A DNA stretch of 64,000 nucleotides from Ginglymostoma cirratum (lineage: Eukaryota), in NCBI GenBank assembly GCA_024137785.1, contig JAHRHZ010000021.1, positions 28,382,985 to 28,446,984 on the forward strand, read 5' to 3'. Made by a program: the position numbers and the translations under genes. The notes beneath the pieces were generated by a model, which had not been told where the DNA came from, did no database searches, and saw only the letters and a program-made list of their open reading frames with translations. Of the stretch, positions 23,508 through 58,912 are shown piece by piece. Positions within the stretch are counted from its first letter, which is position 1; every line of letters begins with the position of its first letter.

Positions 23508-25637
23508 TTACGAACAGGTTGCTGATACATCTATTACCGTGGCTTTAACTTCCAGTGGTCCTTTCTTCTCTTTTGCTGTGTCCCAAATATTGATAATTGG
23601 AGCATAGAAGTTGTTTGATGGAAATATTGCTTTACTCGGCATGTACTTTTCTGAACAGCTGTGGCTGGAATTATACTTCATCCTCCAAGTCGCATAAGAG
23701 CAGACACACGTCATGCTAATGACACCAAAGATTACACCAAGGACAGCCACAAGTGCTGAGGTTGTACTTTGTCCGTTTGATTTTACAGCCAACTCCAATC
23801 CATTTGTTGTGACGTTGACACATTTCTTTTCAGTTTGTTGATGAATGTTGGTTACGTCAATACATACCTCATACTTAGTTGATGGGTTCAAATGCGTTAG
23901 ATTATATGTACGTATATCTACTGGAACTCTGGCTGTATAGGTAAGTTGATGGCTGTCAGAATTCATTTTGGCAGACCATTGAATATTTGTTGATATACAG
24001 TTTGAAACAGGCTTCCAAGACACCAAGATAGAATGCGATGCCACATTTTTTATTTTGATATTCAGAGATTCATTCATGGACTGTGCAAATGAGCCATTCA
24101 CTGTTATAAGAACTGTTTTCAAATCTGCTCCAACCAGATTGTGGGCCACACATGTATACAAGCCTGTTTCATTGTTGCTTACATTAAATAAATCCAGTGT
24201 TCCTTCAAGTTGCATGTTGTATTTATTGGTTGAAGTATTAGGCAGAAGTTTATCACCAGATGGTGTGATCCAGTAGATTTCAGGCTCTGGTAGTCCTGTA
24301 GCTCGACAGTGCAGAGAGACTGAGCTCCCACTGCTTAAATTTACAGCAGAAGGGAAGCTTTCAGATGCTATTAATGGAAGGCACATATCTGTCATTTCTC
24401 GGAAGGGAATCTGTCGGACATGCTGACCTTTAAATTCAGGTGGGTCAACACAAAACAAAGACTGTAGTTCCATGAATCGAATGTGTGTTTTGTTCATGTT
24501 AATCCAGCGAATGACACAATCGCATCTGATTGGATTGCTATGAATGCTGACTTCCTGCAGTTTAGGTAAAGATTCCACTGTGCCTCTATAGAGAGCACTA
24601 AGTGCATTACTGTTAAGCATTAATGTTTCAAGTTGGGGAGCTCTGTAGAATGCATTTGGATGGATATATGATAGCTTTGGGTTGTTTGTTGCTTCAATTT
24701 TTGTTAGTTCAGGCAAATTGTCAAGAGCAAGACAATCAATAGAAACCAGTTCTGCCATATTATTAATGCCCAGCTCTTTCAAGTGCAACATATTTCTGAA
24801 ATCCCCTTGCCGTATTCTCTGAATGGGATTTTTATTCAAATCCAAGAATTTGAGATTGGGAACTTTTTGAAGAGCTGCATGGGGCACCGTAATAAGTCTG
24901 TTGTCATAAAAAGAGATGCTTTCTAAATTGTTTAGGCCAACTAATGTATTGTCCCCCAGTTCTGAAAGCTTAATTCCAGCGAGGACCAAACTCCGCAGAT
25001 TGATGAGGGGTTTAAAGCTCATGGCTTGAATTTTAGTGATGGGATTTTCTCCTATTGTTAGAATCTCCAAGCTTGGGATAACATCAAACCAGCTGCTTTT
25101 AATCGTTGTTAATTGGTTAGAATTAAGATGCAATCTGAGAAGATTATTTAGACCTACAAATGCTCCCATTGCAATGCTGGAAATCTGATTATGATTAACA
25201 TAAAGTTCCTGTAGATTGCTGAGTCCAAGCAAACAGCTGTCAGGCAACTCTTTGAGTTTGTTTTCCTCCAGGTGCAGTGACATTAGCTGGAGCATTTTTC
25301 CCAGGTTGATGTCACAGATCGCTGAAAAATTGTTTTGAGATAAGTCGATTTCTGTAAGATTAACCAAATAGTCTATTTTGATCTCGATTTTTGAAATATT
25401 GTTACTCTGCAGTAGTAAAACTTGTGTCTCAGCTGGTATTCTTGGAGGAAGTGAAGCCAGGTTTAAATTGTTGCACTCTGTTGTAGGCGCTTCCATATAA
25501 ATAGATCTTGGCGTGAACCATGGTCTGATTTCACAAATACAGGACTTTGGACAGTCCATATTTCTTTCCACCGTTTGTACTATTGCAGTGACTGCAAGCC
25601 CAATAAAAACACAGGCATTGAATGATGTGTCCTTCAT
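23508..25637 (-). CDS. LRRN3: Leucine-rich repeat neuronal protein 3 (NLRR-3), single coding exon, 709 aa
   Basis: Intact ORF. The first in-frame ATG is at 25637 (MKDTSFNACVFIGLAVTAIVQT, signal-peptide-like). Then LRRNT CPKSCICEIRPWFTPRSIYMEA, tandem LRRs, LRRCT NPIRCDCVIRW, Ig domain (LHCRATG..PEIYWITP..YTCVAHNLVGAD), FN3 (YNLTHLNPSTKYEVC), TM helix LVAVLGVIFGVISMTCV and tail YAPIINIW..KEK..LEVKATVI. The MKD start and VKATVI end match LRRN3 as I recall it, not LRRN1/2. Confidence 0.96.
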   Translation of the reverse strand: MKDTSFNACVFIGLAVTAIVQTVERNMDCPKSCICEIRPWFTPRSIYMEAPTTECNNLNLASLPPRIPAETQVLLLQSNNISKIEIKIDYLVNLTEIDLSQNNFSAICDINLGKMLQLMSLHLEENKLKELPDSCLLGLSNLQELYVNHNQISSIAMGAFVGLNNLLRLHLNSNQLTTIKSSWFDVIPSLEILTIGENPITKIQAMSFKPLINLRSLVLAGIKLSELGDNTLVGLNNLESISFYDNRLITVPHAALQKVPNLKFLDLNKNPIQRIRQGDFRNMLHLKELGINNMAELVSIDCLALDNLPELTKIEATNNPKLSYIHPNAFYRAPQLETLMLNSNALSALYRGTVESLPKLQEVSIHSNPIRCDCVIRWINMNKTHIRFMELQSLFCVDPPEFKGQHVRQIPFREMTDMCLPLIASESFPSAVNLSSGSSVSLHCRATGLPEPEIYWITPSGDKLLPNTSTNKYNMQLEGTLDLFNVSNNETGLYTCVAHNLVGADLKTVLITVNGSFAQSMNESLNIKIKNVASHSILVSWKPVSNCISTNIQWSAKMNSDSHQLTYTARVPVDIRTYNLTHLNPSTKYEVCIDVTNIHQQTEKKCVNVTTNGLELAVKSNGQSTTSALVAVLGVIFGVISMTCVCSYATWRMKYNSSHSCSEKYMPSKAIFPSNNFYAPIINIWDTAKEKKGPLEVKATVIDVSATCS

Positions 25638-25988
25638 CCTGGAATGGTTTCTTCTGCCTAATAATAGGTGTTTAAGAATTCTGCAATTACTGCTGTTAAG
25701 CTTAATCACCAGATCATTTGTTACCAAGCGCTGAACATTTGCTGTCTTATATATTTCATGTGAGTGGCAGATTTCTATCCTTGAAAGGAAGGAGTAAACT
25801 TTCAATTACCCTGTCCAAAGATGCCATGCATGTAAGGCTGTTCAATCCTGACACTGTGAAAGTGATAAACTGGGATAATCTCACAGAAAATTCTGCAAAT
25901 ATATTATGCACTTCATTTATTCTTCTATAGTCTGCCTGTTTTTCCCGAGCATCTTTTTTAGAGAGGCATTAAAATAACATCGGATCAC

Positions 25989-36815: not shown

Positions 36816-38060
36816 GTCCTTTCCTGGTCACCTTTCTGTTCTGTGCTAATTCTGCTATTGTTTTTAAAATAATTCCCTGTTCATTTAAAATCTTTCTTTG
36901 ACACAAGTTCTGCATCTTTTCCATTCTTGATGTTGGGCCAATGACCTGCTTCTGCTAAAGCACCTAAACCACTTAGGATGGAAGTTTTCACTCAAGATTG
37001 AAATGAGTGGCTTGAGATGGTGATCATATTCCTTCAACTCTTTTTGCTCCCTCTACAAAGAAGGAAGCTGGATCAGAGACCTTTAAAAATAACAGAAAAC
37101 ATCACTTGCTGATAGTGTTTAATTCAGTAAGATGCAGACCTCACAAACGTAACTCTTCCCTGACCATTTCCTGAGACAACATTTTGAGTCTGAGCATAAA
37201 AGCTGTCTTTATTAACTTTGCTGTATGGAAAACAGGCAGGTATCAAGCTGGATTCAAAGCATGATTATGAGCTTCACTTCATCGTGTATTGATATCTGGA
37301 TAATGGAACGAGTGTAAATTTTAAGGTAGTTTTTCAAATGTTGAAGCTGTGCTGCCTTTAGAATCACATTTTTTTGCCTAATTTCATATGCTCCTTCAGA
37401 ATTAAAATACTTATTACTGGTGTTAGAGCACAATAGTGAATTTAGCTATAACCTGTGCCCTGGGCGAAGATGAGACAGGTTACTGAGCTAGTGGACATAT
37501 ATTTGAATCCCAAAAACAAGCCAAAGCTGAACACCTGCTTTAAAATAAGCTGACAGGTGAAACACAGCTGACAATAAAGCTCCTGATACAAGGTGTAGCT
37601 GCATTTGACTCTTCTTGCAAGGATGAGGTCCACTCATAAATGAATAACGTTTCTTTTATAAGTTACTGACTGGAGATAGGATTGCTGAAAACCTAAGATT
37701 TAGTTTCTAAGGAGGTCTGGGTGTATCTGTATAGAATTTTGATTTTTGATATGTTTGGTACATTTTTGAACTTAATGTTTTTGAATTCAATTTCAGCTTT
37801 AGGGGTTGCCTTAAATAGTTTGCAGGATCCATTTACTTTCACTGGAAATCTAACCATTGAATTAACAAACATGCAACGCACTGCAGGTTTGAAAGATAAT
37901 ACTAGTTTACTGCTCTCTTTTTTTTCTTATCCTGTATTTGATGGCAGGCCAGAGCTAGATAGGAAGTTATCTGACTAAATTTTTTAAAATTTACTTAACT
38001 TTGGGAGGAATCAGACATAGTTGAAACCAGTTAAACTAAACATGCAAATCAACTGATACA

Positions 38061-38622
38061 GAGATAAAAGGTACTGCAGATGCTGGAGAATCCGAGATAA
38101 CAAGCATGGGGCTGGATGAACACAGCAGGTCAAGCAGCATCATAGGAGNNNNNNNNNNNNNNNNNNNNNNNNNNNNNNNNNNNNNNNNNNNNNNNNNNNN
38201 NNNNNNNNNNNNNNNNNNNNNNNNNNNNNNNNNNNNNNNNNNNNNNNNNNNNNNNNNNNNNNNNNNNNNNNNNNNNNNNNNNNNNNNNNNNNNNNNNNNN
38301 NNNNNNNNNNNNNNNNNNNNNNNNNNNNNNNNNNNNNNNNNNNNNNNNNNNNNNNNNNNNNNNNNNNNNNNNNNNNNNNNNNNNNNNNNNNNNNNNNNNN
38401 NNNNNNNNNNNNNNNNNNNNNNNNNNNNNNNNNNNNNNNNNNNNNNNNNNNNNNNNNNNNNNNNNNNNNNNNNNNNNNNNNNNNNNNNNNNNNNNNNNNN
38501 NNNNNNNNNNNNNNNNNNNNNNNNNNNNNNNNNNNNNNNNNNNNNNNNCCCGAAACGTCAAGTTTTCCTGCTCCTATGATGCTGCTTGACCTGCTGTGTT
38601 CATCCAGCCCCATGCTTGTTAT
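38061..38622. mobile_element. Young inverted-repeat Penelope-like family A insertion spanning the assembly gap
   Basis: 38097-38148 is the exact reverse complement of 38571-38622; cccGAAAcGTC hammerhead 3' half at 38549-38559. Confidence 0.75.
38149..38548. other. Assembly gap (400 N)
   Basis: Run of N. Confidence 1.
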
Positions 38623-56069: not shown

Positions 56070-57606
56070 GTAGAGGTGATTCGTGACACTATCAAATGTG
56101 CTTCAAGCTTTAATATTGCCATACCATGTATTTTAGCTTAGAACTATGACAAGTAAAAAGTAGATATTACATTCAGTTCAATATATGTGCATTCAGGTAG
56201 AAGTCACATTGTTTTATGATTTCAGATAATTTTAGTTAACAGTGCAATTAATCACTCTAGTAATTATATCTAGTGAGTGTCCTGAAATCAAATACGATAT
56301 TTGCAAGCACAGTACCTCCTTATTTTGTTGGTGAAACAACTTTGCTTGACTGCTGTTGCTTCGTCTTTCTGTGATTAGTAAAGCTGTCAAATGAAAGTTG
56401 AGCTGTATGCCTTTTGTTTTAAGAATACTTTGCTCAATACTATATATTGCACTTATTGGATTTAGTGATCGGTGTACTCTTGGGTGTAAAATGTTGATTT
56501 AGTATTATAACACATCAGTTCTGATTTCCCTCTCACACAATGTTACAAGGAGCTTTTTGCACTGCTGCACAAGCTTAGATGGCAGTGCACAGTCCAGAAG
56601 AATGTCCGTGATTTTACAACAGTAGTCAATGGTGGTCATGTTGGAATAATTTTGAGTGTTTGGTGCAGTCAATACCAGTACAGCACAAGACTTTCAAGCC
56701 ACAGTTTTCTTTTCTCAGATGATAGAAATGGTATCTAAAAGGCTAAGAAAATTACATAAAGGAACTATTGAACATTCTCAGTATAAAGACGACAATCACA
56801 TTTTTAAATTGTGAATATTTTTGTCTATCAAGGTAAGAGTTCAACAGAATACCTTATTTTCAACCTGCTTATTCTGTTGTTATAAACAGGTGGTGTTTCA
56901 GACTTTTTTTATATAGGGCACTGTGCTTCAGGTTTTTCCTAAAAGTTATAAGCCATGATCTCTAGAGTCAGCATAGTGGTTCTCCTCCTACATGAAACAG
57001 ACATCAGCAAATAATTATGAAACATACATTGCTGAGTTTTCTCCACATCCAGTAATTCAAACAATTGTATAAAAGTTTGGTGAACCAAACTGTAGAAAGT
57101 GAAAATTAGATTAAATGTCTTGCTAACTACAAAATGGCAGCTGTATTCACTGAAGCAAGCCTTATGTAGTCCTAAAACTACTCAAATCAAATATATTAAT
57201 TCTGATTGAAAGAAGTATCTGAGAAAAAATACCAAAGTGTTTCCATCTCTAACGGAATGTGGCATTCCTTAAAGTCTTCCAATGCCACTTTTAATGATGA
57301 TCACCAGGGAATGTTTGAGAATGGAACAGATAGAATTATTAGCTAAGTCAATCTCTCTTTCCCTCTCTCTGGGAAAGTTTCTTTCTCCATCCAGCTGGCT
57401 GAGGTCAGGAATTCTCAAAATATCACCTTACTGTAAACCAAAGGAGTAGTATACATCTCACTGTTTGCTAGCACAGTGCATTAGTCCAGCTTTACAGCAC
57501 ACCACAAACCACATGTTAGTCATCAAGTCCGAACATTTCATTAGCAGTTTCTTTACAATTTGTTTTGTGACAAATCTACAATGATTTTCTGAAATTATTC
57601 TTATCC

Positions 57607-57808
57607 TGTTGAGGTTGTTGAGATTGGTTGGCTCGCCGAGCTGGTTTCTTGTTTCGCAGACGTTTCGTTACCATGCTTGGAGGCTGCACTGAGGATGTTA
57701 TCAAGCATGGTAATGAAATGTCTACGAAACAAGAAACCAGCTCGGCGAGCCAACCAACCTCAACAACCTCAACACCCACAACCCGAGCTAAAAATCTATT
57801 CCAAAACC
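57607..57808. mobile_element. Fold-back Penelope-like family C insertion: 73-bp inverted repeat, hammerhead core and 14-bp TSD
   Basis: 57607-57679 pairs with 57702-57774 (4 differences). CTGAGGA at 57689-57695, GAAA at 57715-57718, GTC at 57720-57722. Flanks TTATTCTTATCCTG (57595-57608) and TTATTCTAATCCTG (57809-57822). Confidence 0.8.
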
Positions 57809-58029
57809 TTATTCTAATCCTGGTTGGTGATTTGTTTTGGTGTGGAATCTATGTTAGTTAGTCAGTCAGTGCCAACACTGATTATATGTGTACTTATGCT
57901 AGTAATAGCTCAATATAAAGTATGACAGACTATTTATCAGACTAAAAGGCTACAACTTCGATTTCAGCATATCAACACAGTTTACAATACCTCCTTGGCT
58001 TGGGCTATTTATCTGTGCCTGTATTCTAG

Positions 58030-58912
58030 ATGGGTTATGTTTCTGTACGTGTTAAAGTATCATTTATTTTAGAGTTTGGACTTTGGACTAGTGGGTTGTA
58101 GGTTTACTCTGTGTGTATGAGGAAGTAGAATGTTAACCTGTCAGTATTTTTGGAGCTAGGACTTTTTAAAGCTAGTATGACAGAGGGGGTCCCTGGGGTA
58201 TTGATGGGAATTTGTTCGCACTGGAAGAGTTTTACAATTGAACAGAATAAACATTGAGGAGCATTAGGTTGTTTTCAGTTTAGACAGATCAGGGTTTTTT
58301 TGGGAAAACCCATAGCTTGAAAAGTTTTTGTTTTTTTGGTTCATATGGGTCTCAGTGGAAGTTAGATGTATGAAAAAAGTTTCTCCTGAAGAAAGAAAAT
58401 AATTCAGAACCCTCAAAAAAGTTTTCCTCAGTGTCAGGATTTAATTTGAAATTTCCAGACCAGAAGTGTTTGGTTAGAACCCCGAGGGGTTAATCAACGT
58501 TGAGAAAGTCTAAGCTCAGTTGTATAACCAATCAAAGAAGTGGCTCCTAAACTCTCAAGAATGAAAATCAAAAGAAACAATTAGGTTAGACCTATAAATA
58601 TGATAGAGAAATGAAGGGTCTTTACTTTTTGAACAATGCAATGAGATGGTGGTGGGATAGATGGGATTGTTTCTTTACTATGCTATTTTGAAATCTTTGA
58701 AACTGTGTTATATGTTAATAGCTTAGTTTATTCTATTTTATCTTTAGTTTTGTGTAACTAGCTTCTGTTTTATTGTTAAAATTGAATCTGCAGCACTGTG
58801 TGCTTGGGTTTCAGTGAAAGATTACTTCATTAAATTTAAAAAACATATATAGCAAACCAGAGTTCAATCTGCAATCTGACCTGTCCAGTAAAAACATCGT
58901 GGGATCATAAAA
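58030..58912 (+). mobile_element. Possible solo LTR (Gypsy-like), decayed
   Basis: LTR-like composition ending ..ctgacctgtccagtaaaaacatcgtgggatcataa; a similar ending gagatcata occurs near 8870. No TSD confirmed. Confidence 0.3.

Follow-up and report, generated by a model that had tools for sequence, protein, structure and literature searches.

The hairpin insertion analysed here is a decayed stub of about 200 bases that consists of two end pieces of a Penelope-like retrotransposon joined head to head, and it is a singleton. Both of its arms are the terminal repeat of the element, a 14-bp duplication surrounds it, a 37-nt tail is present on one side only, and it was not copied as a unit. We put a probability of about 0.9 on the reading that two very short Poseidon-type end pieces were inserted here once, long ago, likely in one aborted integration, that the locus has likely been inert since then, and that its hammerhead motif is a passenger. 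The locus is real, well explained and ordinary, and it is not a new mobile RNA.

Layout of the insertion and its genomic setting

In the window, that is, the whole 64-kb stretch of DNA analysed, two fold-back arms of 73 nt each (57607-57679 and 57702-57774) are separated by a 22-nt spacer and differ from each other at four places, namely 57714, 57719, 57724 and 57758/57623. The hairpin is bounded by a 14-bp direct repeat with one mismatch (57595-57608 and 57809-57822), and both the fold-back and this target-site duplication confirm what a previous reading of the sequence alone (the sequence-only reading) had described. The first three letters of the direct repeat are the same as the last three letters of the element, which means that the actual duplication may fall a few bases short of 14 bp. 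No other copy of the element family and no head-to-tail repeat is found in the window. The features are listed below, with signed numbers counted from the start of the open reading frame (ORF) of the parent element.

57595..57608, plus strand: target-site duplication, left copy; its single mismatch, at 57602, arose after the insertion (57602 is A, as in the right copy, in four of four runs of related organisms B and C, which come from one study and at most three samples)
57607..57680, minus strand: inverted, 5'-truncated terminal piece of the Penelope-like element, +7 to +80, with neither tail nor CUGANGA core
57679..57680, no strand: head-to-head junction; 2-nt microhomology in which GG fits both arms; unique genome-wide
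57679..57811, plus strand: direct, 5'-truncated terminal piece (pLTR and tail), ending at +117
57685..57726, plus strand: minimal type I hammerhead motif, decayed; substitutions at 57701, 57714, 57719 and 57724 against the family majority; predicted cleavage after 57722
57690..57692, plus strand: TGA within the ribozyme core, the stop of the parent RT/GIY-YIG ORF; the ORFs of loci L036, L040 and L046 terminate there
57695..57697, plus strand: ATG that opens the parent ORF in full-length copies; in frame with the ORF in 8 of the 14 printed copies that retain the upstream hammerhead (25 copies examined)
57775..57811, plus strand: one-sided tail of 37 nt, in the sense in which PMC8557442 and PMC11167929 describe such tails
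57809..57822, plus strand: target-site duplication, right copy, from the direct-repeat comparison

The insertion is older than two lineage splits. Contigs of organisms B and C enter it from both flanks at the same site, which indicates that it predates the splits from both, and because 57602 is A in all four of their runs the duplication was originally perfect. No empty site was seen in these two organisms, in which no contig spans the full insertion. The flanks differ from organism B by 11-12 letters per approximately 430 and from organism C by 22-25. On the minus strand of the window, 23508-25805 holds a 765-aa open frame in a single coding exon with leucine-rich repeats, Ig and FN3 domains, which we take to be an LRRN3-like gene. 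Two exons that resemble a signal peptidase gene and have clean splice sites are located on the plus strand of the same contig (C21, 28521750-28521824 and 28566135-28566221), 75 and 119 kb beyond the window; their matches are weak (E=1.2 and 7.7), and they presumably belong to an IMMP2L-like gene. LRRN3 is stated to be nested in intron 3 of IMMP2L (PMC3565204). The stub thus probably sits in sense orientation in this long intron of the IMMP2L-like gene, a placement drawn from exons on its downstream side. Elsewhere in the window, the segment at about 58050-58117 has a high contig depth in all four related-organism runs and is another dispersed repeat fragment, and a run of N several hundred bases long occupies about 38050-38600.

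The parent element and its hammerhead

The sequence-only reading had proposed a search for a parent encoding both reverse transcriptase (RT) and GIY-YIG, and such a parent was found. In the genome (4.36 Gb) there are at least 3507 first-look candidates for the hairpin unit, and a query from the RT region gave 2926 candidates. Copies with a single arm run upstream into a coding frame, where open stretches of up to 356 aa show a YVDD RT core and then a GIY-YIG-type region; at locus L040 one 356-aa open stretch holds both, the motifs being read by eye. The Pfam model RVT_1 scored over its cut-off at locus L033 (E=1.1e-7), while GIY-YIG stayed under its cut-off (E=0.0086 and 0.06) and gave no match in three other fragments. 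A near-full-length copy (L051, contig C218, minus strand) consists of an inverted stub, a pLTR, an ORF region of about 2.5 kb and a second pLTR, and the window stub matches these pLTRs at 90-94% identity. The ORF of this copy is frameshifted, and no intact parent copy is present among the loci read. The layout of the parent is accordingly pLTR-ORF(RT, GIY-YIG)-pLTR, with the stop and the start codon of the ORF both inside the hammerhead and the predicted cut site at +28. The family has pseudo-LTRs formed by a partial tandem with the hammerhead inside the pLTR. The suggestion that the locus combines a minimal hammerhead of Penelope type with a partial, inverted terminal repeat is borne out, both arms being the parent's terminal repeat.

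By eye, no zinc-finger-like cysteine motif is visible in the RT-EN linker, from thumb to GIY, of loci L036, L040 and L046. Such a motif is described as separating Neptune and Nematis from Penelope and Poseidon (PMC8557442), and because none is visible here we class the parent with Penelope/Poseidon rather than with Neptune. Judged by its layout and by motifs read by eye, the parent is an abundant Poseidon-type EN+ Penelope-like retrotransposon. A PDB sequence search with the parent protein returned no match, and the family may already be named in Repbase or Dfam. Two length subfamilies of the terminal repeat differ by a 9-nt in-frame duplication (window 57757-57774), and the inverted arms end at +69-72 or at +78-81 according to the length subfamily.

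The type I hammerhead order that had been read on the plus strand is confirmed at 57685-57726. It comprises the 5' strand of stem I (57685-57688), CUGAGGA (57689-57695), an extra U (57696), stem II (57697-57703 with 57708-57714), GAAA (57715-57718), GUC (57720-57722) and the 3' strand of stem I (57723-57726). Searched with a minimal-hammerhead descriptor, the 64-kb window yields this site alone, and only with one stem I mismatch permitted; 60 simulated 64-kb sequences of equal dinucleotide make-up yield none. The core elements CUGANGA, GAAA and NUH are intact in this copy. Its four differences from the majority of 152 family segments, one of which (57701) falls between the arms and outside the arm-to-arm differences, weaken stem II, turn G10.1-C11.1 into G-U and break stem I. 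Stem I thus has a C-A at its second pair and three of its four pairs left, and stem II contains two G-U wobbles, one of them at the conserved 10.1-11.1 pair. The substitutions also spoil the 15.2-16.2 palindrome (here U-G) that would form stem III in a dimer. The family majority has G10.1-C11.1, a palindromic 15.2-16.2 and a helix I of 4-5 bp, whereas this copy lacks all three. The left arm, which reaches only as far as +7 from the start codon, does not contain the CUGANGA core.

At the level of the family the motif is in better condition. Among the 152 segments the core is intact in 101 and the motif is fully canonical in 19, and each CpG letter in the ribozyme is changed in 15-32% of the segments; on this comparison the family hammerhead is genuine and decays after insertion. 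A sister subfamily has a CUGAUGA core and a C-G pair that replaces U-A in stem II, and its pattern has 705 exact matches genome-wide against 0 for the reversed control. In a hand count of the first 100 of the 705 listed matches, the third stem II pair is C-G in 48, U-G in 31, U-A in 16 and unpaired in 5. A helix II pair thus covaries between the sister subfamilies, probably through few events and at a site that is also coding. The doubt voiced in the sequence-only reading, that the family might prove to lack the core or stem II covariation, is answered by these counts. The motif is the one that the Penelope-like class normally carries, and it came to this locus as a passenger from the parent pLTR.

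A check with covariance models had also been suggested; an Rfam scan around the site gave no hammerhead family at E<=10, and nothing in the whole window reached the gathering score. The Rfam microRNA matches at the hairpin come from generic long-hairpin models and, at 73.9 bits where the cut-off is 297, were discarded. In the modelled fold the long hairpin has a free energy of -133.8 kcal/mol, the stem II pair probability within it is 0.000, and forcing stem II costs 20.1 kcal/mol. The hairpin is thus predicted to out-compete the ribozyme fold and the motif to be switched off in this copy. Any transcription across the site would produce the left arm before the ribozyme, whose 3' half would then base-pair with that arm; the ribozyme is therefore predicted neither to fold nor to cleave. 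Single minimal hammerheads are reported not to cleave alone (PMC4209133), and that of the Anolis carolinensis Poseidon element (PAc) is described as requiring its protein (PMC11167929). Given this published behaviour and the computed cost of stem II, a switch between hairpin and ribozyme at this locus is unlikely, and the competing folds that the sequence-only reading had envisaged do not amount to one, the ribozyme fold having a probability near zero against the hairpin.

Origin of the hairpin

Two samples of loci bear on how such hairpins arise. One was drawn by likeness to the window copy and comprised 36 loci, or 35 after a complex insertion of 534 bp (L124) was dropped. These 35 hairpins measure about 170-245 bp, and 28 of them have target duplications of 11-18 bp (median 14), compared with 3 of 1190 mismatched flank pairs in the control; the other seven have no duplication by the scoring rule used. 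The other sample was chosen by the +29..+117 part alone, without regard to the 5' end, and consists of 30 of 40 scored loci. All 30 copies end at +113..+117, their 5' ends range from +3 to -985, and none starts at the cleavage site. An inverted piece lies upstream in 21 of the 30, with its outer end at +69..+81 in 15 of 19 visible cases, so that inverted 5'-truncated copies with a one-sided tail of 30-40 nt, as in the window, are a feature of the family. Tiny hairpins make up 3 of the 30, the window's included, and the hairpins thus form the lower size end of a continuous range of inverted insertions. The two arms of one hairpin share subfamily letters (19/20, 19/20 and 13/16; shuffles 38, 1 and 201 of 10,000) and so come from the same subfamily. 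In the dropped locus L124 (contig C217, 7416194 region) one arm starts at +29, directly after the predicted cleavage site; this single case among 36 loci is compatible with chance.

We propose that the GIY-YIG endonuclease of the element would nick both target strands about 11-18 nt apart, and that the two free 3' ends would serve as primers for reverse transcription of element RNA that has not been cleaved, with the start at the tail end (+113 to +117) for one and at an inner site (+69 to +81) for the other. Both cDNAs would stop early and be joined via microhomology, and gap filling would create the target duplication. From the end positions and the concordance of the arms we infer the two-strand priming step. 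The geometry also fits, since an antisense copy is attached to the 3' end of each flank, and PAc is reported to cleave and extend both strands in vitro. On the other side, matching arms are likewise expected if self-priming took place on an antisense template or if gene conversion acted later, and the recurrence of one join at several loci suggests that some junctions are shared. A bolder form of the proposal, which we hold only tentatively and at less than even odds, is that the hairpins are the full genomic footprints of a double-primed Penelope insertion, with both nicked strands priming on one uncleaved RNA at two fixed sites, and that the pile-up of inner ends at -11 marks the hammerhead region as a place where reverse transcription halts or meets a boundary, and not as a cutter. 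If this is true, thousands of such junctions would let the undefined integration pathway of Penelope-like elements (PLEs) be read from the genome.

The inverted arm could also come from the same parent if one cDNA, or an antisense RNA, snapped back at a palindrome and primed itself, a route proposed for PLE inverted junctions (PMC3846280). Shared subfamily letters are expected from it as well, and the 5' edge of stem I (-11/-10), where about 23 of 70 arms terminate, has a TGCA palindrome that may explain the pile-up (BLAST ends counted by hand, in a sample in which short hairpins are over-represented). Since AG precedes -11, a splice acceptor there was considered for these ends and rejected, as the arms ending there join an inverted copy and not an upstream exon. 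Snap-back predicts a clean symmetric apex, but most apexes are asymmetric and some contain extra letters, and by itself it leaves the stop of the left arm at +69..+81 unexplained, where a second RT start site is described for PAc. We consider this route unlikely, though worth keeping in mind beside two-strand priming.

The sequence-only reading also took the unit for a mobile, non-coding RNA akin to a retrozyme. In the general form of this claim, the Penelope protein would mobilise a retrozyme-like or MITE-like hairpin RNA in one piece, and the long hairpin would regulate the ribozyme. The many hairpins of similar size with duplications might suggest this, as might the description of animal retrozymes as derived from PLE pLTRs (10.64898/2026.07.22.740005) and the recurrence of one join, in which both arms end at -11 in the TGCA palindrome and which the genome contains at 7 loci. 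Those seven loci, however, include both orientations to the tail and both length subfamilies, as fits repeated microhomology joining. The central junction of the window has a single match in 4.36 Gb at up to one mismatch, and the 32 apex strings extractable from the 35 hairpins all differ, four of them sharing the TGCA join. Hairpins with different junctions were thus formed anew and did not propagate as such. A retrozyme would consist of head-to-tail, hammerhead-bounded units with a canonical ribozyme, and here there is one core in a head-to-head arrangement without tandem, in a hairpin favoured over the ribozyme fold by 20 kcal/mol; the position of the hairpins within the continuum of inverted insertions argues in the same direction. 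Nor do the variable 11-18-bp duplications and the one-sided tail resemble the short fixed duplications and symmetric terminal inverted repeats of a MITE or cut-and-paste transposon, the origin that had been named as fatal to the sequence-only reading. The right arm is the first 117 nt of the parent coding frame. For this copy the mobile-unit reading is largely refuted, and we regard it as very improbable. Scarcely credible is the idea that the host kept the insertion as a functional intronic hairpin or ribozyme. Its presence at the same site in organisms B and C and its probable sense position in an intron, given the plus-strand IMMP2L-like exons beyond the window and the minus-strand LRRN3-like gene inside it, would suit such a role, but the arms differ at 4 of 73 positions (5.5%), which resembles the flank divergence to organism C (25/418 and 22/437) as neutral decay predicts, and the changes strike stem I, the 10.1-11.1 pair and the stem III palindrome.

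Comparison with known systems

The reading of the locus as an aborted Penelope-like integration places it among insertions that are already published for this class, namely inverted, tailed and truncated insertions with minimal hammerheads (PMC8557442, PMC2377424, PMC4209133). Literature searches on PLE inverted insertions, palindromes and twin priming found no paper devoted to PLE mini-hairpins, judged by title or the start of the abstract. The locus itself matters little, since fragments of this known retrotransposon class number in the thousands and it is just one decayed stub. Taken together, such stubs have fixed outer ends that match the two positions at which the Anolis Poseidon protein was measured to start RT in vitro, which would fit priming from both cut strands, and the lack of starts at the ribozyme cut site among the 30 sampled copies agrees with uncleaved RNA as the template. 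The inverted-insertion step of PLEs is described as undefined in the literature, and a genome-wide census of stubs could probe how it is made.

The closest likeness is to PAc, for which the ORF is reported to begin at hammerhead stem II with the cut site 26 nt in, RT to start at +111-118 on both strands with a tail of 30-40 nt between two start sites, and the template to be uncleaved RNA (PMC11167929, Frangieh et al. 2024). The parent described here shares the ORF start at stem II, a cut 26-28 nt into the ORF, an insertion end at about +111-118 and the tail of 30-40 nt. The likeness is drawn from layout, and unlike PAc the window copy is a dead genomic stub with no coding capacity. With the inverted, 5'-truncated, one-side-tailed insertions described for EN+ PLEs (PMC8557442, PMC3846280, PMC2377424) it shares the head-to-head inverted terminal piece, the tail at one end and a target duplication of 8-10 bp or longer. 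Those insertions flank long or full-length bodies, whereas the window stub is a limiting case with only about 130 and 75 nt. Minimal type I hammerheads of metazoan PLEs are described with a 7-bp helix II, a 4-bp helix I, an extra base before helix II and no loop 3, and pairs of them occur about 100-700 bp apart on opposite strands (PMC4209133, Cervera and De la Pena 2014). The window motif has the same helices, extra base and missing loop 3, but in this copy G10.1-C11.1 is gone, as are the 15.2-16.2 palindrome and one pair of helix I. The non-LTR retrozymes of animals, reported as head-to-tail repeats with canonical hammerheads that are expressed as circles (PMC7229834; 10.64898/2026.07.22.740005), resemble the window insertion in being non-coding, hammerhead-bearing, related to PLE pLTRs and flanked by long target duplications. 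They differ from it in organization, since the window insertion is a head-to-head singleton with one minimal, damaged motif.
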